A stretch of DNA of 9,381 nt from a virus (taxonomy: Duplodnaviria; Heunggongvirae; Uroviricota; Caudoviricetes), in the IMG/VR virus record IMGVR_UViG_2675903336_000010. The stretch is one strand, 5' to 3'. The position numbers and the translations under genes were made by a program. Below the pieces are notes generated by a model. The model had not been told where the DNA came from. It saw only the letters and a list, made by a program, of their open reading frames with translations, and made no database searches. The stretch's first letter is position 1; the number at the start of each line of letters is the position of its first letter. Shown here one piece after another: positions 236-9,189 of the stretch.

Positions 236-1318
236 TCATTTTCTCTGGCTGATCTTTACCGGATAACCATCCCGAAGATCAATTAAGTGCTCCGGTTCAG
301 AAGCAAACCATGCATAAGATCCCCACGCCAATTCTGGTATTGCCTTTTTAAAAGGCAGAGCACTTCTGTCCATAAATGCCGTAAGGAATGCAAGATTTTT
401 CTCGCTGAACCCAGCGTCAATAGCCAAATGAGTGAGAGTAACTTTTCGTTCCCTGTTTATAGGCCCATCTGTCGCAACTACTTCAGTGAAAACTACAAGC
501 ATGTCCGAACCCGTTCGGTCCTCTCCCAAATCAATCAAAATAATATCTGGAAGTGCTTTTGAGGCATCAATATTCAGCCCCAATGCTTTTGCCAATACAT
601 CATCCTGAGCAACAACTTTATTCCCGGATTCAGACAACCAGAGCACAGTTGGATTCTTAAGAAAATTAGGAGCAAAAACTTCGATGACGGCCTTAGCTAT
701 TGTACTTGACGGGCCCGGAGCTAAAGTTCTCTTCTCTCCATTTGGGAAAGTGACGACTACGGCATCAGCAGCAATCACTGCCCCTGATTTCAATAAACGC
801 AACCTAGCAAGAGCGGCTTTGTTCAAATGATTTTCTTGCCAGGAACTTATTGCACTCAGCAGCGAATCTCCTTCAAGCCCGGCATCAAAGAGTGCTGCAA
901 AAGAGCGATTCAAACTGTAACGAGGACGAGAGGATGTGGTGGGTATACCTTTACGCTCAACAATTGCATTGCAAGGTATTAGGCCATTTTTTATAGTTTC
1001 ATCACGTATTGGCTCACGCGTATTTTCCGCATACCATGCATCAGCAGGCCTTATCTTTTGTTTAGAGAAAGTCATCTTTACCCAGCTTTCTCTGGACGCA
1101 TCATCAGTAAGAGCAGCCTGCGAATCTCCCATACTTACAACCTGGCTGGGCCTTATCCATCGCCCCAGCCCCTCAACCGCACCAGCATAAAACATGACAA
1201 AAATTGTTTTTGCAGCTATTTCCCGAATTAAATATCCACGATTCTCAGTCCCTTCAGGGAAAATTAATTGTAATCTTTCCCGGATAACATTCAATGGGGG
1301 AACAACAGGCAGATTCAT
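236..1318 (-). CDS. Putative type II restriction endonuclease (partner of the adjacent methyltransferase); family not assignable by eye, possibly BsuBI/PstI-like
   Basis: 360-aa ORF whose ATG overlaps the methyltransferase stop by 4 bp (ATGA at 1315-1318), implying translational coupling. C-terminal half has a PD...E-x-x-K-like arrangement (LPDIILIDL ... VVFTEVVATDGPINRERK). Region is AT-rich like the methyltransferase gene. No sequence search possible. Confidence 0.5.
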   Translation of the reverse strand: MNLPVVPPLNVIRERLQLIFPEGTENRGYLIREIAAKTIFVMFYAGAVEGLGRWIRPSQVVSMGDSQAALTDDASRESWVKMTFSKQKIRPADAWYAENTREPIRDETIKNGLIPCNAIVERKGIPTTSSRPRYSLNRSFAALFDAGLEGDSLLSAISSWQENHLNKAALARLRLLKSGAVIAADAVVVTFPNGEKRTLAPGPSSTIAKAVIEVFAPNFLKNPTVLWLSESGNKVVAQDDVLAKALGLNIDASKALPDIILIDLGEDRTGSDMLVVFTEVVATDGPINRERKVTLTHLAIDAGFSEKNLAFLTAFMDRSALPFKKAIPELAWGSYAWFASEPEHLIDLRDGYPVKISQRK

Positions 1319-3147
1319 GCAATCATCACTCCATAGAAACCAGCGATAGTTCTCTCAATAATCCGTCTGTGGACGCCAGCATCAATTAACGATTGAATCT
1401 CCATCACCTGCTCCAGAGAAGGCAACGGGATTGAATTCAATTCATAGGCCGAAACAGCAACACTTCCGCTTATACACCTGAACGCCCGATCGACAACATG
1501 CGAATTAAGTAGCATATCAATAACATCAGGGCGAACCGCAGAGAACAATCCGTTTGAATATACAATATTAATATGGTTTTCAACTACTACGCCACCAGTT
1601 TCATCTATAAATCCCTGAGGTAAAATTGCCGCTAAAATCCTTCTGTCCTGTTCCTTCGATGTTGTCCGCTGAACAAGCACACATTCAGATTTTGTCACAA
1701 GGAAACCCTGTTGTGGGGTTATATCGATATAGGGAACATGATTTTTTCTGTCTGCACTAAAACGAAAACCAGCTGAAGTTATTGATTCCGCCCAGACTAA
1801 TGGGTAGCTATTTTTTCCTTTCGTCGTACGCAACTGCGACTTAAATCGATTCCAGACTAACTGACCTGTAGAGACTGAGTATCCCAGATCAGCTAAACGC
1901 GTAGACATCTGTTTTAATACATTAAGAAAACAGGCATCATCTTTAACGCGTGGCAAAAGCCACGTTGCTCCACCTTTTTCTATATCAACATTACCTATTT
2001 TCTCAATTTTTGCTTTGTTCAACCCCTTAGGGACAAGTGAGGATACCTGGGCCCGAACTTTATGTTCTCCCGCCTTGAATGCTGTCAACATTGTTTCCTG
2101 GAGAACATCGTCAAAGACCCCATCCCTGTCAGTGACGAAATCAAGGGCATACGGAGTAGTTTTTTCGGTCAAAAGGGTTCGCAGCGCGGTGAAATACTGC
2201 CCACCAAGAAAAGAAGTTGGCGTAAGAAATGCAATAACTCCTGTTTTCTCTTTAACCATGCGAACAGCTAAGTCGGTGAACAATCCATATAGATTTGCAT
2301 GACCAAATAACGAACGAGAATATTTTTCTCTCGTTTTAATATCGAGAGTGACACGTCCGTAAGGCGGATTCCCTACCACAAGATCATAACCAGAAAATTT
2401 ATCTTGCTGAAGCGCATCAGCAACAATAATTGTATCTTCAGGCAATCTACGTTTTACCTTTACACATAGTGGCATTAGTACAGATTCGAGCAATACCAAA
2501 CTCATCCAAGCCGCAAATGGATCGATCTCTATCCCCTTTAAACGACGACTGATTCTCCTCAACATCCATTCAGGGGAAGACCCCTTGTCTTTTTTTAACA
2601 TTCGAATGGCTACTGGTGCCAAAAATGCACCGCCACCACACGCAGGATCAATAACCGATGCATGAGAAAAATCAACACCAGACTTTTCAGCCAGGTCCAA
2701 GAGACGCGCTACCAAAGGTGGGGGGGTATAGTAAGCCCCCAATTCCGAACGGTAAGCGGATGGCAGCATTACCGTATAAATTGACCCAATCAGATATCCA
2801 GCGTCCTCCGCCGGAAATTGAGCAATAAGCTCACCTGTTCGTTCAGCGAGCTCGCGTGCATCACATGGAATGTCTTCTATGTAAACAGTGTGCGGTACTG
2901 CCCTCATTTTAATGCTGCTTTTTTGCTTTTTTGCAAGGGTATCCCAATATGCAGCTACGATGCTGAAGCAGTATGAGCGGGCATGCATCAACCTTGACTG
3001 CCCGGTTTTGTAATTGCCCGCATAACCTTTGGCCATGGCTTTACAAGTTTGATATCTTTCCAGATTAGAAAACTCATTATCTGTAAAAAAATCAAAATGT
3101 TGCACATTCATAATGTAAAATCCTAATGTATCAAACATGCGGGCCAT
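1315..3147 (-). CDS. N6-adenine DNA methyltransferase, gamma class (motif order X-I-IV), with a long C-terminal putative target-recognition region
   Basis: 610-aa ORF. Motif X GAYYTPPPLVARLL (aa 137-150), motif I VIDPACGGGAFL (aa 165-176, verified at nt 2620-2649) and motif IV VVGNPPYG (aa 257-264, NPPY verified at nt 2359-2370). About 340 aa follow motif IV. Sampled 60-nt lines are about 30-45% GC versus about 57% in the phage core. Confidence 0.85.
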   Translation of the reverse strand: MARMFDTLGFYIMNVQHFDFFTDNEFSNLERYQTCKAMAKGYAGNYKTGQSRLMHARSYCFSIVAAYWDTLAKKQKSSIKMRAVPHTVYIEDIPCDARELAERTGELIAQFPAEDAGYLIGSIYTVMLPSAYRSELGAYYTPPPLVARLLDLAEKSGVDFSHASVIDPACGGGAFLAPVAIRMLKKDKGSSPEWMLRRISRRLKGIEIDPFAAWMSLVLLESVLMPLCVKVKRRLPEDTIIVADALQQDKFSGYDLVVGNPPYGRVTLDIKTREKYSRSLFGHANLYGLFTDLAVRMVKEKTGVIAFLTPTSFLGGQYFTALRTLLTEKTTPYALDFVTDRDGVFDDVLQETMLTAFKAGEHKVRAQVSSLVPKGLNKAKIEKIGNVDIEKGGATWLLPRVKDDACFLNVLKQMSTRLADLGYSVSTGQLVWNRFKSQLRTTKGKNSYPLVWAESITSAGFRFSADRKNHVPYIDITPQQGFLVTKSECVLVQRTTSKEQDRRILAAILPQGFIDETGGVVVENHINIVYSNGLFSAVRPDVIDMLLNSHVVDRAFRCISGSVAVSAYELNSIPLPSLEQVMEIQSLIDAGVHRRIIERTIAGFYGVMIA

Positions 3148-3361
3148 AACATCTCATGGTGGCGCATAGCAAACTGGCCCGAAGAATATCACGCACCAAG
3201 TCGATCTCATAACCCGTTATGACAATAAATCTTTGTAGCTGAACTCACTTGGTGATTTGTCAATCATTCCTGGCCTCCAGTTCGTCCTGAATCTCTTTAT
3301 CGAGTTCACCGTATTTGTTAGTCCTCATCACTCACGACTTGACTTCCAGAAATAACCTTGA

Positions 3362-3718
3362 TTATTCGGGGCTATATTTTGTCACCCTGCGTATCCGCGC
3401 TTTCGCATTACGCTCAATCTGGATTAGCTTTTCTATATTTTTTCGCCTTTCCCGCTCCTCCTGGCGCAAGAGCCTTACATCATCTGCCAGTCTGGTTTCT
3501 CTTTTCGCCACAGAGAGCATCCAGTCAAATGGCTCCACAACTGCACCGCAAATTTTACAGCGGACCTGACGCTCTTTTTCGTCAACCCGGACAGAAGCGT
3601 GATGGCAATATGGTCTTTCCGATGGCTCATAAAGAAAATTAACCTGATTACGAGGGTTATCCTCTTTTACCGGAAATAAAACAATATTGCTTAACTCATC
3701 TTCTGGTTTTATTTCCAT
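3362..3718 (-). CDS. Hypothetical protein, Cys/His-containing (C-x-H-H ... C-x-x-C) with a basic/acidic C-terminal tail
   Basis: ORF track extends to 3775 (GTG), but the ATG at 3718 is preceded by a strong SD (AAGGAGAGGAG). Translation MEIKPEDEL...CHHASVRVDEKERQVRCKICGAVVEPFDW...RLLRQEERERRKNIEKLIQIERNAKARIRR. Same strand and tight spacing with upstream genes. Confidence 0.55.
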   Translation of the reverse strand: MEIKPEDELSNIVLFPVKEDNPRNQVNFLYEPSERPYCHHASVRVDEKERQVRCKICGAVVEPFDWMLSVAKRETRLADDVRLLRQEERERRKNIEKLIQIERNAKARIRRVTKYSPE

Positions 3719-3775
3719 GCTCCTCTCCTTTGATGCGAATGCCAGCGGTAATTGAAGCCTGATAGCTAATTTCAC

Positions 3776-4198
3776 TCACAGTACCGCCTCCTGAAAATCA
3801 CCCTGATAGAAAGCCGGTACACGCTGCATAACTTCACTCTTCCGGCACTCGCGACAGATTATGTTCTGATGTCTGTCGTAGCGGCGTATTTCTCCGTCCG
3901 GTAATGACCAGATAAGGTCCGGATCAACCACAGATGGTTTCTTCAGCTTTGCCCTCGAGAGTTTTTTGCGGGCGTTTTGCCAGTCCTTACGAGCCTGTTC
4001 AGACGGGAATAACCCGTAGCCAGAGTTGTATACATCCCCACTGGCAACCAGCTCTCTGGCGAGAACGCTTATTAAATATCTTGTCGCCCCGGTTTTAGCT
4101 TCCAGTTGTCGTAACGTCTCGCGCCCACTCTGGCGTACGAGTTCAACAACCTGCCCCTTAATTTTTTCCCGCTCTTCCTGTGTAAATACTTTTGCCAT
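3776..4198 (-). CDS. Hypothetical protein with an HTH-like segment
   Basis: ORF track start at 4213 is TTG; in-frame ATG at 4198 (MAKVFTQEE...) has a G-rich SD-like stretch upstream. Contains TLRQLEAKTGATRYLISVLARELVASG. Lies 15 nt after the stop of the upstream gene. Confidence 0.5.
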   Translation of the reverse strand: MAKVFTQEEREKIKGQVVELVRQSGRETLRQLEAKTGATRYLISVLARELVASGDVYNSGYGLFPSEQARKDWQNARKKLSRAKLKKPSVVDPDLIWSLPDGEIRRYDRHQNIICRECRKSEVMQRVPAFYQGDFQEAVL

Positions 4199-4213
4199 AA
4201 GCGCCCCCGGCAA

Positions 4214-4939
4214 TCACTTTTCCGACACAATACGACCGGAGGAATCGACAATCTGTCGAACAATATCCCGGTGCTTGTTCAGCTCCCGCAACGCGGCGCA
4301 GACACGCTCCCACTTCTGGACATGACTTTTCGCCCGACGCAGTTCGCGGTTTGCCATATGCAGCGATGGTAAAACCAGGTCATCCGCTTGCGTTTCGGTG
4401 AACGATGGCAACGACTGCACAATGTCCGCCACAGTTTCTGTTTTAATTTCTTCCTGTGTTGCAGCTTCCTGTACCGGTAACGCAACACCTGCTGGCTGAG
4501 GAAAGACTTTACCATCCGTTTCCGCTATGGATGCGGCTTTCGGCTCTGCCGGTAAATCAGCGCCCGGTATGCAGTACCGAAATTTACCGCCCTGATTCAC
4601 GCGAATCAGACGCCCTTTGCTGATTGCCATGGCCAGCGATGAATTCGCCCGGCGGGAGGTAATCCCGAACATCAGTGCCAGCTCATCCGCCGTTTGTGGG
4701 CCATGTTGTTCAATCGCCTCAGTCAGCATTTGCGCTGTCACTTTCGGTACCGGTGACACTGGTTCACTTTCACCAGCCTGAATCAGCCACCACATCGAAC
4801 CCTTGTTATCCGCTTCACCACGGCGCTTCAGTTTCCACAGTTCGTTGACCGCATCTTCACGGCTGATTCCAAGGCGGGACGCCACCACATGTGAAGAGGC
4901 TCTTTTCAGTGCTTTCAGTGCGTCAAATACAGTTTCCAT
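4214..4939 (-). CDS. Hypothetical protein with two tandem winged-helix-like segments
   Basis: ORF track start at 4957 is TTG; in-frame ATG at 4939 (METVFDALK...) is preceded by GGAGGA with 7-nt spacing. Two similar segments ([24 protein letters not shown] and [32 protein letters not shown]). Starts about 20 nt after the DnaC-like stop. Confidence 0.55.
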
Positions 4940-4960
4940 TAAAACATCCTCCAACAAAAA

Positions 4961-5445
4961 TTACTTCACAACTCCCGGAAAGCTGACATTTGAACGCCAG
5001 CTATCCCAGTTAAACGTCACCCACCGACAACCGTTCATGGTCATGCGGTCCATAATCCTCTCACCAAGAAGCGTGCTCATTGCGGCATGATTCAGGTTTG
5101 TTAACATCCCGACACTGCACAGTGATGCTGTCCGGCGATCAATTATCTGGTGCAATACCACCTGCTCGTTTTTCGTCTCCCGCTGAATGCCTATTTCATC
5201 CAGGACCAGCAAATCAACCCCGCAAAGCTCCTGTAAAAATTTTTCACCGGATTTGCCGTTGTCGTAGCTGTCATGCAACACGCTCATGACATCAGACTCG
5301 GTGACGATAATCACGCTGCGCCCCTTCGCCATCAGCCGGTTACCCATCGCCGCTGCAAGGTGATTTTTCCCGGTGCCGGTTTTACCGCTGAACACAAAAT
5401 TCGTGCACCCGGTCATCAGTTCGTCAGCTATGGATTTGGCCTGGC
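4961..5445 (-). CDS. DnaC-like helicase loader (lambda P analog / YdaV-like AAA+ ATPase), N-terminus lost in the assembly gap
   Basis: Walker A FVFSGKTGTGKNHLAAAMG and Walker B DLLVLDEIG. The frame stays open upstream of the first in-window Met (...QAKSIADELMTGC...) into the N-run, so the gene is truncated by the gap, not by a stop. Confidence 0.85.
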
Positions 5446-5705
5446 NNNNNNNNNNNNNNNNNNNNNNNNNNNNNNNNNNNNNNNNNNNNNNNNNNNNNNN
5501 NNNNNNNNNNNNNNNNNNNNNNNNNNNNNNNNNNNNNNNNNNNNNNNNNNNNNNNNNNNNNNNNNNNNNNNNNNNNNNNNNNNNNNNNNNNNNNNNNNNN
5601 NNNNNNNNNNNNNNNNNNNNNNNNNNNNNNNNNNNNNNNNNNNNNNNNNNNNNNNNNNNNNNNNNNNNNNNNNNNNNNNNNNNNNNNNNNNNNNNNNNNN
5701 NNNNN
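5446..5705. other. Assembly gap (260 N)
   Basis: Uninterrupted run of n from 5446 to 5705; true length and content unknown. Confidence 1.
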
Positions 5706-6578: not shown

Positions 6579-7004
6579 TCAATGTACTGCCACAGCATTT
6601 CCTGCCGGGCCACCACGGTTCATCTGATTGAAACCGGCGATTGCCACTGCGACAAAATCATCAGCGTCTCTCACCAGTCGTTCATGCGTCTCCACCAGTT
6701 CCCGAAAATAAGCTGAACTGTGGCTGCGCATTCGAGCCACCAGCGGAGGTGGCATTGCCCTTTCGATCGCAGGTAACAACGCCTGAATTTTTTCAACAGC
6801 GTCAGGGGTGTCTTTATCCAGCCAACGGAAAATCTTTTGGGTGTTGAGATAAAGCGTGTTGTGCTTGCTGTCGTTATGCAGAACCGGAAACGTCATTCCC
6901 AGTTCGAAATAAACCCTGGTTATTTCAGCTGCCGGAACTTTTTCACCGTCCGGATGCGCCCAGGCTTTCATCGCCATGCGGATGTGTTCATGCTTGATTT
7001 TCAT
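6579..7004 (-). CDS. ydaT: YdaT-like protein (Rac-type functional analog of lambda CII)
   Basis: 141-aa ORF starting MKIKHEHI..., which I recall as the N-terminus of Rac prophage YdaT. Its ATG overlaps the upstream cro-like stop (ATGA at 7001-7004). Confidence 0.65.
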   Translation of the reverse strand: MKIKHEHIRMAMKAWAHPDGEKVPAAEITRVYFELGMTFPVLHNDSKHNTLYLNTQKIFRWLDKDTPDAVEKIQALLPAIERAMPPPLVARMRSHSSAYFRELVETHERLVRDADDFVAVAIAGFNQMNRGGPAGNAVAVH

Positions 7005-7264
7005 GAATCAACCCCCGCCGATGGTTGTGTGTTAGCCTGAAACTCAGCAGGCAAGCCGTCAGTTGGGTTGGGGTAGGTTTTACTGTCAATCTCATGTGGG
7101 GTCACCACCCATCCCGTTGCTTCACACCAACGTAATATTTTTTCTCCTGTAAGTTTTGCACGCCCCGTTATAACGTGGCTGACCATCCCTTGGGATGCGC
7201 CAACAATCTCAGCAAATGAACTCTGGGTTATATGAAAATGATGCAAATATTCTCCAAGATTCAT
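7001..7264 (-). CDS. Cro-like HTH regulator (YdaS-like, XRE family)
   Basis: ORF track start 7291 is TTG; in-frame ATG at 7264 (MNLGEYLHHFHITQSSFAEIVGASQGMVSHVITGRAKLTGEKILRWCEATGW...) has an AGGG SD upstream. HTH signature SQGMVSHVITG. Divergent from the repressor across an operator-containing intergenic region. Confidence 0.7.
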   Translation of the reverse strand: MNLGEYLHHFHITQSSFAEIVGASQGMVSHVITGRAKLTGEKILRWCEATGWVVTPHEIDSKTYPNPTDGLPAEFQANTQPSAGVDS

Positions 7265-7298
7265 AATCCGCCCTATGTGATGTGTTACCAATGCATAA

Positions 7299-7341: not shown

Positions 7342-7375
7342 CAAAGTGATTAGCAATCTTATTAGAATTGGATGT

Positions 7376-7876
7376 ATGAAAAGAAAATCATTGTCAGACA
7401 CCGACCTCAACGCCGCCAGAAGACTGAAAGAAATCTGGATGGCAAAGAAATCTCAGTTGGGATTGACTCAGGAACGTGCGGCGGAAATTATGGGGTTTTC
7501 AACACAAGGGGCGGTAAGTCACTACCTAAATGGTCAAACCCCACTAAACCTTGAGGCTGTTCTAAAGTTTGCTGGCTTACTGAAAGTTCCCCCTGAGTCA
7601 ATCAGGCCAGACATGGTAGATTTGCTGCAAATTGCAAGGATGTATTGTCGAGAACCACAGCAAGATAACATAGTCGCATTACCAGCAGACACAGAACAAA
7701 CAGAGGATGAACTACCGTTTGCCGTAGAGCCGATGGAACGAGATTTAATCCATACGTTCAGAGCTTTTCCGAAAGAAGATCAAGAACACATGCTTCAGGA
7801 GATGAAAGATAAAAAAGAATCAATGGATCGTACGGTTGCGCGGTGGTTAGCTGCACAAAAAGGCCGTCGCGCCTAA
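7376..7876 (+). CDS. Prophage repressor, RacR/PaaR-like XRE-family HTH protein with no LexA-like peptidase domain
   Basis: ORF track start 7346 is GTG; first ATG at 7376 (MKRKSLSDTDLNAARRLKEIWMAKKSQLGLTQERAAEIMGFSTQGAVSHYLNG...). Classic cI/XRE HTH (LTQERAAEIMGFSTQGAVSHYLNG). Divergent from the cro-like gene. C-terminal half lacks any G-x-S-M/Ser-Lys autocleavage signature. Confidence 0.75.
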   Translation: MKRKSLSDTDLNAARRLKEIWMAKKSQLGLTQERAAEIMGFSTQGAVSHYLNGQTPLNLEAVLKFAGLLKVPPESIRPDMVDLLQIARMYCREPQQDNIVALPADTEQTEDELPFAVEPMERDLIHTFRAFPKEDQEHMLQEMKDKKESMDRTVARWLAAQKGRRA

Positions 7877-7895: not shown

Positions 7896-8090
7896 ATGAG
7901 TACAGTCCTTTCCCCAATGGTTTCAGAATTTGAGACAGTTGAGCAAGAAAATAGTTACAACGAATGGCTGCGGGCCAAAGTAGCAGCAAGCCTCGCGGAT
8001 CCCCGCCCGGCGATTCCGCATGATGAGGTAATGGCGGAAATGGAACAAATTATTGCCCAAATTGCTGCTGCAACTCACAGAGGTGAATAA
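7896..8090 (+). CDS. Small acidic antitoxin of a ParE-family type II toxin-antitoxin pair (PaaA2/ParD-like)
   Basis: 64-aa ORF with GAGGAG SD 9 nt upstream of the ATG. Stop overlaps the toxin start (TAATG at 8088-8092). Sits 19 nt downstream of the repressor stop. Confidence 0.65.
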   Translation: MSTVLSPMVSEFETVEQENSYNEWLRAKVAASLADPRPAIPHDEVMAEMEQIIAQIAAATHRGE

Positions 8091-8380
8091 TGTTACCCGT
8101 TTTATGGCTACCATCTGCTCGTGATGATTTGCGCCAGATCGTAGCCTACATAGCTAAAGAAAATCCCGCGGCAGCACGCAGAATGAAAATTCGAATTGAA
8201 ACATCCGTTTTGCCGCTCACAGAGCATCCTTACCTGTATCCTCCAAGCGAGCGAGTTCTTGGTCTTCGTGAAATTGTAACTCATCCTAACTACATCATCC
8301 TTTACCGAGTAACAGCATCAAGCATAGAAGTAGTAAATATTGTGCATTCTCGAAGACAGTATCCAGGCAAAAACAGTTAA
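8090..8380 (+). CDS. parE: ParE/RelE-superfamily toxin
   Basis: 96-aa ORF with the typical ParE pattern: MLPVLWLPSARDDLRQIVAYIAKENPAAARRM...GLREIVTHPNYIILYRVTASSIEVVNIVHSRRQYP. Translationally coupled to the upstream antitoxin. Confidence 0.8.
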   Translation: MLPVLWLPSARDDLRQIVAYIAKENPAAARRMKIRIETSVLPLTEHPYLYPPSERVLGLREIVTHPNYIILYRVTASSIEVVNIVHSRRQYPGKNS

Positions 8381-8480: not shown

Positions 8481-8659
8481 TTCAGGCGTCAACCCACCCC
8501 GCCCCACAGAATGCAGGGCAATACTTCGAGTTACCAGACAGTGGTCAGGGGTTAAGTAGCCAGCCCGAGGCGTAAGAACATGACGGCAGGGTTCAATCTT
8601 TAACTATGCAGCAGGTTTTTTGTTCCGCCACCCCGGCGTTAAGGGGAAATGAGGTCAGC

Positions 8660-8812
8660 ATGGATACTATCGATCTTGGCAACAACGAATCTCTGGTGTG
8701 CGGCGTGTTCCCTAACCAGGATGGAACGTTTACCGCCATGACGTATACCAAAAGCAAAACGTTTAAAACCGAATCTGGCGCGCGTTGCTGGTTAGCCAGA
8801 AACACTGACTGA
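8660..8812 (+). CDS. Small hypothetical protein (50 aa), first gene of the leftward early transcript
   Basis: ATG at 8660 (MDTIDLGNNESLVCGVFPNQDGTFTAMTYTKSKTFKTESGARCWLARNTD) with GAGG SD 5 nt upstream. The longer track ORF from 8606 lacks an SD. Confidence 0.45.
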   Translation: MDTIDLGNNESLVCGVFPNQDGTFTAMTYTKSKTFKTESGARCWLARNTD

Positions 8813-8823
8813 TGAGGCTGACG

Positions 8824-9189
8824 ATGGAATTTAAAGATTTACCGTCTGATGTACAGAAAACAGCAGCTCATACATTGCATTCTGTGCTGCGAGAAATCGG
8901 GAAAGATATTGCAAGCGAGCCAGCAAAAGATCTGGCCCGGAAAATCAAGACCGCTTTCGTTGAGCTTTATAATGTTGGCACTGACTCTGAAACTGTCGAG
9001 ACCAAGACCGTAAGTTCACCAATATTCTCACTTGAGCCAAGCGTATTATCAGGTGAAATATGCACCGAGATTTCCAGCGAACTGCTTCCGGTAATACGAG
9101 AAGCAATTCGCCGTCGCGGTTTGGATGGAAGTTATGATCATGACGTTCTGCAAGTTCTCAGGACAATGGTGACTTCACTGGGGATTTGA
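8824..9189 (+). CDS. Hypothetical protein (121 aa; alternative start 8812 overlapping the upstream stop as TGATG)
   Basis: ATG at 8824 (MEFKDLPSDVQKTAAHTLHSVLREIGK...) has GAGG 7 nt upstream; the 8812 start has no SD but could be coupled. No recognisable motifs. Confidence 0.5.
   Translation: MEFKDLPSDVQKTAAHTLHSVLREIGKDIASEPAKDLARKIKTAFVELYNVGTDSETVETKTVSSPIFSLEPSVLSGEICTEISSELLPVIREAIRRRGLDGSYDHDVLQVLRTMVTSLGI

Follow-up and report, generated by a model that had tools for sequence, protein, structure and literature searches.

The ren gene of bacteriophage lambda lies directly downstream of the replication genes O and P in the rightward early operon, and its product lets lambda escape Rex exclusion. 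Ren contacts the Rex proteins in a two-hybrid assay (Thomason et al.). In the Rac prophage of E. coli K-12 the gene order is ydaU-ydaV-ydaW, and in Rac phage 442/2 it is ydaU-ydaV-ydaW-lygF. K-12 ydaW blocked the retron-Sen2 toxin RcaT in a plasmid overexpression screen (preprint). The DUF977 family, which includes LygF, has been reported as a winged helix by HHpred/COMPASS (PMC2686095).

We analysed a 9,381-nt stretch of a virus of the Caudoviricetes (IMG/VR record IMGVR_UViG_2675903336_000010), referred to here as the window. Three co-oriented minus-strand ORFs lie at 4214-4939 (gene A), 3776-4198 (gene B) and 3362-3718 (gene C). Gene A begins 21 nt after the stop codon of a DnaC-like gene at 4961, and gaps of 15 nt and 57 nt separate A from B and B from C. 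Profile searches identified the 5' neighbours of the trio as an O-like replisome organizer and a DnaC/IstB-like ATPase. The 3' neighbours are an Eco57I/N6-type methylase and a BsuBI/PstI endonuclease, which make up a PstI/BsuBI-type restriction-modification (RM) pair. The trio lies in the accessory region bounded by the replication genes and the late regulator. For all three genes the ATG starts fit the N-termini of the family alignments better than the longer TTG or GTG ORFs. An earlier note on this DNA had described three tightly packed, co-oriented genes running from the replication module to the RM pair, and the coordinates and the 15-57 nt gaps agree with that description. It had also noticed HTH or winged-helix segments in two of the proteins and a Cys/His protein with a charged tail. 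These observations hold: A has two winged helices (pLDDT >95) and B has one; in C, a charged helix comes after the invariant residues C38, H40, C54 and C57. As a separate observation, the window is rich in defence-type morons, with the RM pair and two ParE-type toxin-antitoxin modules.

A simple scan of both strands of positions 3000-5100 recognised nothing promoter-like, and terminators were absent from the minus strand both there and from the cro-like to the DnaC-like gene. Because the trio has no recognisable promoter or terminator of its own and its gaps are 15-57 nt, it is probably read as the tail of the early operon. The rightward early promoter that would be expected also escaped the simple promoter scan, and the argument for co-transcription of the trio is therefore one of gene order only. 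There was no Rfam match in the window, and RNA folding and Rfam searches of the 214-nt spacer between C and the methylase gene gave nothing.

The earlier note could not assign the three proteins to known families by eye. In fact A belongs to PF07789, B to PF06163 and PHROG 142, and C to PHROG 1621. Strong profile matches and purifying selection mark all three as real genes and not chance ORFs. Median dN/dS against diverged homologues was 0.27 for A, 0.12 for B and 0.11 for C, and the ratio was below 0.5 in each of their domains. Close comparisons and per-domain dN/dS showed no signature of diversifying (arms-race) selection. Homology to housekeeping nin-region proteins would have spoken against the earlier suggestion of an accessory function; none of the three proteins had a Pfam match at E < 0.1 to NinB/Orf, NinG/Rap, RusA, NinH, NinI or NinE/F/X. 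In contrast, NinB, NinG, NinH and RusA do match among the neighbours of distant C homologues. Searches of PADLOC-DB returned nothing for B and C and, for A, only SWIM_XIII (E 0.0099, 12.5 bits) with no significant stretch, and NCBIfam gave no meaningful matches. A, B and C are true accessory genes of a lambdoid prophage of the Rac type, located in the ren/nin slot. The prophage has an E. coli or Shigella host, most likely Shigella sonnei.

Gene B (3776-4198, minus strand) encodes a 140-aa protein, with its ATG at 4198 and a TGA at 3778-3776, and is a DUF977/LygF homologue of lambda Ren. It matches PF06163 over the entire model (105.9 bits against a cut-off of 22.1, E 2.2e-30, model positions 1-134 of 134). 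It also matches phrog_142, 'Ren-like exclusion protein' (E 2e-46, positions 1-115 of 116), as does lambda Ren (E 1.6e-41, positions 11-110 of 116). The two proteins align end to end with 26% identity. Both have an N-terminal winged helix, which in B spans aa 1-62 (4013-4198), as indicated by the published DUF977 winged helix and by hhalign to the second winged helix of A. The recognition-helix region of B is mosaic, with seven winged-helix sequence types among 68 loci. The most conserved portion of B lies outside the HTH, in a C-terminal Ren motif at aa 98-140 (3779-3907; LPDGEIRRYDR..NIICRECRKSEVMQRV.AFY). Here BLASTP against lambda Ren found 10 of 20 residues identical (E 1e-5), and the two proteins share N-[IL]-[IV]-x-[KR]-E-C-R-x-S-x-x-M-x-R-V-x-A-x-Y. 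Fifteen columns are invariant in an alignment of B variants plus Ren, and the invariant residues include E103, R105, N112, E117, C118, S121, M124, R126, V127 and A129. B is 44 residues longer than lambda Ren, with a basic-linker insertion of about 30 residues and an N-terminal extension, and the Pfam DUF977 profile does not detect lambda Ren at E < 0.1. Like ren in the O-P-ren order of lambda, B lies downstream of the replication genes, the order in the window being O-like, DnaC-like, A, B. The alignments thus identify the winged helix and the C-terminal motif as common to DUF977 and lambda Ren. LygF proteins (Salmonella Enteritidis Sdr I region; the Rac-like phages Rac-SA53, mEp460 and Evi) are DUF977 members like B, 68-93% identical to it, and their gene order is alike.

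Gene A (4214-4939, minus strand) starts with an ATG at 4939, preceded by GGAGGA 7 nt 5' of the start, and ends with a TGA at 4216-4214. Its 241-aa product belongs to the YdaW family (DUF1627; PF07789, 309 bits against a cut-off of 28.1, E 5.9e-93, model positions 1-155 of 155; phrog_630, E 1.7e-121) and is 99-100% identical to Shigella sonnei proteins. Thirty-four full-length members, aligned down to 19% identity, together with an AlphaFold2 model (m34abefb5bea7), give the family architecture: a first winged helix, a linker, a second winged helix, a variable linker, an IPxFT motif and, at the C-terminus, a basic helix in which one Arg is invariant. Winged helix 1 (aa 1-55, 4775-4939; pLDDT 95-97, pI 9.8) has an H-E-H-H-E-E topology in the model. 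Winged helix 2 (aa 66-126, 4562-4744; pLDDT 94-97) is of the Ren type, matching the B/Ren alignment with an hhalign probability of 92% (E 5.7e-7), and has weak profile matches to the AspA, Z-alpha and MarR winged helices. A and B show no match to each other in direct BLASTP, their relationship being visible only profile to profile. The acidic linker that follows (aa 127-190, 4370-4561; pI 4.05) is predicted to be disordered (pLDDT 41-60), varies in length in the alignment and ends in the conserved I-P-x-F-T motif (IPSFT). The basic C-terminal segment (aa 191-241, 4217-4369; pLDDT >90, pI 10.8) carries the invariant R201 and the consensus EIRRTK..L..LE.LR, and is modelled as helices at 193-222 and 224-240. 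Across the trio, basic pI values (9.2-10.8) characterise both the winged and the terminal helices.

The YdaW of Rac phage 442/2 is 80% identical to A over its full length. K-12 Rac YdaW (b1361) is 57% identical over aa 1-151, which covers both winged helices, but it is a deletion remnant without the linker end or the C-terminal DUF1627 helix, both of which A keeps. In K-12 and 442/2, as in the window, the gene sits after the DnaC-like ydaV. Single-sequence searches of solved structures returned nothing below E 0.3 for A or B, and a profile search with A found only generic winged helices. The earlier note had proposed structure prediction with Foldseek for each protein; these were run on A and C, and gave weak tandem winged-helix matches for A and no significant fold match for C. 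The matches to A (Foldseek E 2.5e-5 to 3e-3) were ScpB, the SelB C-terminus, ESCRT-II and AlkX/YcaQ, which share its two consecutive winged helices but have TM-scores of about 0.2, 13-22% identity and no common linker or C-terminal helix. This resemblance is one of fold class and not of family membership. Nor do tandem winged helices establish nucleic-acid binding, since ScpB and ESCRT-II have such helices and bind only proteins.

Gene C (3362-3718, minus strand) encodes a 118-aa protein, with its ATG at 3718, AGGAGAGGAG just 5' of the start, and a TAA at 3364-3362. It matches phrog_1621 (E 1.1e-54, model positions 1-118 of 134) and no Pfam family above threshold, and 150 homologues were found across the Enterobacterales. 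Its predicted zinc ribbon, C-x-H...C-x-x-C (aa 36-62, 3533-3613), is modelled as two beta-hairpins. All 36 sequences aligned, the most distant at 44% identity, keep the putative ligands C38, H40, C54 and C57, and dN in the ribbon was 0 in 21 comparisons. The best Foldseek match of the ribbon was the TFIIB N-terminal ribbon (27 columns, E 0.15), and it scored 21.6 bits against the TFIIB ribbon PF08271, under the 29-bit cut-off. The ribbon is followed in the model by one long basic amphipathic helix (aa 63-115, 3374-3532; pLDDT 81-96, pI 10.5) with a heptad-like hydrophobic stripe. It includes a near-invariant stretch, LR.EE..RR.NIEKLIQIERNAKARIR, and 15 invariant positions between aa 84 and 110. 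The model had no significant fold match in BFVD or the PDB, and a profile search of solved structures found nothing. A DksA/TraR-type zinc finger was considered and rejected, as there is no Pfam match and the order is reversed: the ribbon comes first in C and is followed by a single helix, whereas in DksA/TraR a coiled-coil hairpin precedes a C4 finger. Other PHROG 1621 members (gp17 of the Stx phage ArgO145 and nin-region proteins of Yersinia and Serratia prophages) share the CHCC ribbon and the NIEKLIQIERNAKARIR helix with C at 45-95% identity. Unlike C, they have Ea22-like genes as neighbours or lie in the interval from NinG/NinH/RusA to Q. A further PLPLWQNE tail is present in distant members, and all these proteins are annotated as hypothetical.

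The neighbourhood comparison that had been proposed for these genes showed that an order of replication genes, optional A, B, optional inserts and C recurs in mosaic Rac-like prophages. In FDAARGOS_943, B directly follows the DnaC-like gene, and A is missing from many loci. A and B are adjacent in the Shigella phages 75/02 Stx and POCJ13, where identity to the window proteins is only 44% and 68%. Extra genes separate B from C in 28 of 73 loci. C stands just before the Q antiterminator gene in Yersinia and Serratia prophages and beside Ea22-like genes in phage ArgO145. The intervening genes and these other sites of distant C homologues rule out B and C as an obligate pair. C stands on its own as an independently mobile nin-type gene, though it often occurs together with B. 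Insertions of the RM pair downstream are rare, occurring in about 5 of 80 related loci, and the adjacency of the pair to the trio is therefore without functional meaning. The trio consists of mosaic neighbours; it is neither an obligate three-part machine nor part of the adjacent RM system.

Ren counters Rex, and ydaW blocked RcaT on overexpression; accessory counter-exclusion or replication-linked roles are therefore plausible for the trio by analogy. The earlier placement in a nin-like accessory position stands, and the accompanying guess at anti-defence or exclusion is indirectly favoured, again by analogy, by the homology of B to Ren and by the effect of ydaW on RcaT; the novelty suggested by unassignable proteins does not stand. 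K-12 YdaW is a remnant with only two winged helices, so that its blocking of RcaT concerns the winged-helix half, and a diverged (57%-identical) sequence. As a whole, the best explanation, which we put at somewhat better than an even chance, combines expression from the operon tail with Ren-like counter-exclusion adaptors (A and B) and a zinc-ribbon protein (C). The trio would be read as the tail of a rightward early operon comprising cro, cII/YdaT-like, O-like and DnaC-like genes; it would stay silent during lysogeny and be switched on by induction or on infection. A and B would be small winged-helix proteins serving as adaptors, bound to nucleic acid or to a protein partner at the site of phage genome replication or close to it. 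Their role may resemble that of Ren, in that they would keep exclusion or abortive-infection systems of the host or a resident prophage from aborting early phage development. C could be a zinc-ribbon/helix protein that forms dimers and recognises a conserved target, either nucleic acid or protein.

A and B might instead be replication accessory factors, binding to the phage origin or to the O-like/DnaC-like/DnaB complex and adjusting helicase loading or the timing of replication, with any effect on exclusion being secondary. Lambda ren is not known to be needed for replication on hosts without Rex, which counts against this reading. In its favour, A and B have basic winged helices and always stand directly after the replication genes, and ren has been described as 'likely involved in DNA replication', with Rex proteins contacting both O and Ren in the two-hybrid assay (Thomason et al.). 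However, A is dispensable in many otherwise similar prophages, and in a locus sample biased towards close relatives of C, one winged-helix type of B follows at least four upstream gene types, including two initiator C-termini and YdaW, so that there is no visible co-specificity with a particular replication module. We regard replication factors as a minority reading that still deserves some weight. Less probable again is that the winged-helix proteins are sequence-specific transcription regulators acting on promoters of the phage or the host, whether to tune the choice between lysis and lysogeny or to take over the host. Weak similarity to winged helices of the MarR, ArsR and TrmB types, the listing of YdaW among predicted E. 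coli transcription factors and the several types of recognition-helix region in B are consistent with it. Yet the ligand-binding or dimerisation domain typical of MarR/ArsR is absent, the best fold matches are tandem winged-helix proteins that are not regulators, and conservation in B peaks in the C-terminal motif and not in the HTH.

Expression in the lysogen, for superinfection exclusion or defence of the host against other phages, appears quite improbable. PHROG places the Ren family under 'moron, auxiliary metabolic gene and host takeover' and the window carries the RM pair and the two toxin-antitoxin modules, but the genes are embedded in an early lytic operon with no promoter of their own detected, there are no PADLOC matches of significance, and Ren guards the phage, not the host. 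A tie to the RM pair, with C as its controller or with A and B in anti-restriction or self-protection, is suggested by the position of C, which ends 214 nt upstream of the co-oriented methylase gene. The neighbourhood data largely refute it, and we consider it extremely unlikely: RM genes occur in only about 5 of 80 C-carrying loci and are absent near the C homologues of Yersinia, Serratia and phage ArgO145, and the intergenic region before the methylase gene has no RNA structure or Rfam match. A controller protein was rejected for C on the same rarity and on the absence of an HTH_3/Xre-type HTH.

The counter-exclusion reading of A and B has a stronger form, which we hold to be doubtful, in which the YdaW, Ren-like and zinc-ribbon genes would be a dedicated counter-defence cassette. 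Ren-type winged helices would then inhibit or decoy the effectors of replication-sensing abortive-infection systems (RexAB, RcaT), and the zinc ribbon would address a third target. If true, this would explain what genes carried by up to 75% of E. coli genomes do, and would bear on the way in which Ren overcomes Rex. Two independent leads, the action of Ren against Rex and that of ydaW against RcaT, suggest that the DUF977/Ren-like and YdaW genes may be anti-abortive-infection factors. By their family matches, the trio represents three already known and very common E. coli/Shigella prophage families in their usual place, and no new kind of system. What is added is a modest organisation: the link between DUF977 and Ren, the Ren-type second winged helix of YdaW and the independence of the zinc-ribbon gene. 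The DUF977/Ren-like and YdaW genes are worth pointing to, since a substantial proportion of genomes in E. coli and Shigella carry them. Among 5,426 complete E. coli genomes, A was present in 44%, B in 75% and C in 31%; the window proteins are near-identical to thousands of database proteins, with 92-100% identical proteins on record.

Read on the minus strand, the window corresponds to the immunity and early-right region of a Rac-type lambdoid prophage. A CI N-terminal-domain-like repressor gene (7346-7876, plus strand, 176 aa) faces a Cro-like gene (7001-7291, minus), which is followed on the same strand by a YdaT/CII-like gene (6579-7004), an O-like replisome organizer and a DnaC/IstB-like ATPase gene whose stop lies at 4961. 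Then come gene A (4939 to 4214, 241 aa, with GGAGGA 7 nt 5' of its start), gene B (4198 to 3776, 140 aa) and gene C (3718 to 3362, 118 aa, with AGGAGAGGAG just 5' of its start). The earlier note had located these three tightly packed genes correctly, with gaps of 21 nt (DnaC-like gene to A), 15 nt (A to B) and 57 nt (B to C); family alignments favoured the ATG starts over longer TTG/GTG ORFs. Its description of winged helices and a Cys/His protein with a charged tail also agreed with the alignments, an AlphaFold2 model of A and a model of C. The statement that none could be assigned to a family did not survive profile searches (PF07789, PF06163/phrog_142 and phrog_1621). Each of the three falls in a described family and has near-identical counterparts in the databases; they are ordinary prophage anatomy, catalogued already. 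The nearest public DNA is prophage sequence of E. coli and Shigella, which typically shows this kind of mosaic. Given the match of gene A to S. sonnei proteins (99-100% identity) and the start of the window inside an IS1 end, the DNA probably comes from Shigella sonnei or from an E. coli closely related to it. Because of a run of 260 Ns at 5446-5705, the O-like gene is masked at its 3' end and the DnaC-like gene over its 5' third; ORFs called across the run are masking artefacts.

Gene A matched PF07789 (DUF1627, E 5.9e-93) and phrog_630 (E 1.7e-121) and is 99-100% identical to Shigella sonnei proteins. Judged by its sequence, it is YdaW in full-length form: identity is 80% to the phage Rac 442/2 YdaW and, over residues 1-151, 57% to the truncated YdaW of E. 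coli K-12. The K-12 protein (186 aa; DNA record L089, 3753-4313) keeps the two winged helices only, the DUF1627 C-terminal helix having been lost at the Rac internal deletion. The family is narrow, since only 159 clusters were recovered when 1.84 billion representative proteins were searched exhaustively. Its architecture was read from an alignment of 34 full-length members and the AlphaFold2 model (mean pLDDT 80.8). A first winged helix (WH1, aa 1-55) is joined by a short variable linker to a second (WH2, aa 66-126), both modelled above pLDDT 95; from there a disordered, acidic linker (pI 4.05) leads to basic C-terminal helices (aa 193-240, pI 10.8) with an invariant R201. At the end of the acidic linker lies a short conserved hydrophobic motif, I-P-x-F-T (4370-4420, aa ~174-190). 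Foldseek searches of the PDB with the model found only other tandem winged-helix proteins (ScpB, SelB, ESCRT-II and AlkX) at TM about 0.2, and the profile matched the winged helices of AspA, Z-alpha and MarR weakly among PDB sequences.

Gene B matched PF06163 (DUF977, E 2.2e-30), a family already classed as winged helix by Kinch et al. (PMC2686095). Its relatives are annotated as LygF in many phages, a name taken from Salmonella difference region I, where lygF adjoins ydaO and other lyg genes. The best PHROG match was phrog_142, 'Ren-like exclusion protein' (E 2e-46), of which lambda Ren is also a strong member (E 1.6e-41). Gene B and Ren can be aligned end to end: both have the winged helix, and their shared C-terminal motif (NIICRECRKSEVMQRVPAFY in B and NLVFKECRQSAAMKRVLAVY in Ren) is identical at 10 of 20 residues (E 1e-5). 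A basic linker of roughly 30 residues is additional in B. The recognition-helix region of B occurs in at least seven mosaic types, while the C-terminal motif is the constant part. Profile-profile comparison found the B/Ren winged helix homologous to WH2 of YdaW (probability 92%, E 5.7e-7), and A and B are thus distant paralogues in a WH2-type domain.

Gene C matched phrog_1621 (E 1.1e-54), and the profile search found no Pfam family for it. Homologues were found in Escherichia, Shigella, Salmonella, Klebsiella, Kluyvera, Yokenella, Serratia, Erwinia, Pluralibacter and Yersinia, and in phages of Hafnia, Providencia and Enterobacter. Across 36 sequences, with identity down to 44%, C38, H40, C54 and C57 are kept and a helix, LR.EE..RR.NIEKLIQIERNAKARIR, is almost invariant. 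The model (pLDDT 73.6) has a disordered acidic N-terminus (aa 1-35; 3614-3718) with a conserved ELSNVV.FP motif, then a two-hairpin ribbon, then one 53-residue helix, which is basic (pI 10.5) with a heptad-like hydrophobic stripe. Fold searches of BFVD and the PDB gave no significant match; only the TFIIB ribbon superposed, over 27 columns. The conserved motifs in the disordered acidic segments of A and C look like short linear docking motifs. Some database proteins (P0006, P0010, P0043, P0039, P0041, P0061 and P0036) combine gene C with segments of DUF977, DUF1627 or DUF1133 or with an Ead/Ea22-like N-terminus. These are probably chimeras (frameshift, recombination junction or gene calling), not true fusions. 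In phage ArgO145 (record L090, 2489-3857) an Ea22-like gene overlaps the start of a C homologue by 23 nt.

At the sequence level A, B and C are functional coding genes under purifying selection, with median dN/dS against diverged homologues of 0.27, 0.12 and 0.11, respectively. The ratio was below 0.5 in every domain, and dN was 0 in the zinc ribbon of C. For the C-terminal segment of B (3776-3907) it was raised to 0.30 by a variant in the window's copy, VPAFYQGDFQ; the corresponding residues in lambda Ren and nearly all relatives are VLAFYQGNFQ or VLAVY. This copy of B may not be fully functional.

Among 5,426 complete E. coli genomes, A was present in 2,396, B in 4,051 and C in 1,679. Enough upstream sequence was available for 73 of 80 IMG/VR loci with C; B lay directly upstream in 45 of these, nearly always at the same 57 nt, and other genes did in 28. 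In the one of the latter that was read in detail, two inserted genes separate B from C, one Ea22-like and the other encoding 121 aa. Where the arrangement could be judged, about one locus in three had A ahead of B, 14-15 nt apart, an adjacency kept in Shigella phages 75/02 Stx and POCJ13, whose proteins are only 44% and 68% identical to those of the window. Distant C homologues in Yersinia and Serratia prophages close the nin region, with NinG/NinH/RusA ahead of them and Q following immediately, and those of Stx phage ArgO145 lie beside Ea22-like genes. These mixed neighbourhoods indicate that the trio are frequent but mosaic neighbours, not an obligate unit.

Beyond the established family membership, domain architecture and conserved placement of A, B and C, the genes would be the last part of the rightward early operon. 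A simple scan, which also missed the expected early promoter, detected neither a promoter-like site nor a minus-strand terminator within 3000-5100, and no minus-strand terminator between cro and the DnaC-like gene. Ren allows lambda to escape Rex (RexAB) exclusion. In an overexpression screen, the prophage genes relieving the toxicity of RcaT, the toxin of retron-Sen2, included K-12 ydaW; the K-12 protein lacks the DUF1627 C-terminal helix, so this published activity maps to the winged-helix half. The earlier note's guess of anti-defence or exclusion was a reasonable one. We prefer a reading in which A and B would be winged-helix adaptors that guard the early development of the phage against exclusion or abortive-infection systems, with C an independent zinc-ribbon/coiled-coil binder. 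That all three constitute a Ren-type anti-abortive-infection cassette we consider unlikely.

The main rival is that A and B act directly in replication. Thomason et al. found that the Rex proteins contact O and Ren in a two-hybrid assay and described ren as likely involved in replication; one B winged-helix type, however, was found after four different upstream gene types, which argues weakly against module-specific replication partners. A role as regulators is less likely than the adaptor reading, as is defence expressed from the lysogen; none of the three is a member of the PADLOC defence families. None matched housekeeping nin families in the profile search. Membership of the restriction-modification system downstream of C (a PstI/BsuBI-type endonuclease and a 610-aa Eco57I/N6-type methylase, 236-3147, minus strand) is also less likely. 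Since only about 5 of 80 related loci have that pair after C, it is a moron inserted downstream. In the 214-nt spacer between C and the methylase (3148-3361) neither a promoter nor an Rfam match was recognised, and its RNA structure was not unusual (z = 0.25).

The repressor has a lambda-CI-like N-terminal domain without an S24 peptidase domain. Directly after it, also on the plus strand, come genes for a PaaA2-type antitoxin (7896-8090; PF21217, E 3e-23) and then for a ParE toxin (8090-8380; PF05016, E 2e-17). We take this layout to resemble paaR2-paaA2-parE2 of E. coli O157:H7, a three-component module; if the likeness holds, the prophage 'repressor' would double as a toxin-antitoxin regulator. 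The leftward early region (8606-9189, plus strand) encodes a 68-aa YdaF-like DUF1391 protein (PF07151, E 3e-28) and a 125-aa protein with no Pfam match. At the other end of the window, positions 1-83 are the terminal ~83 nt of IS1, 100% identical to IS1A/IS1B ends, whose insertion cut a ParE/RelE-family toxin gene and left its last 36 codons (84-195). The same toxin gene is intact in E. coli FDAARGOS_943, partnered with a ParD antitoxin.
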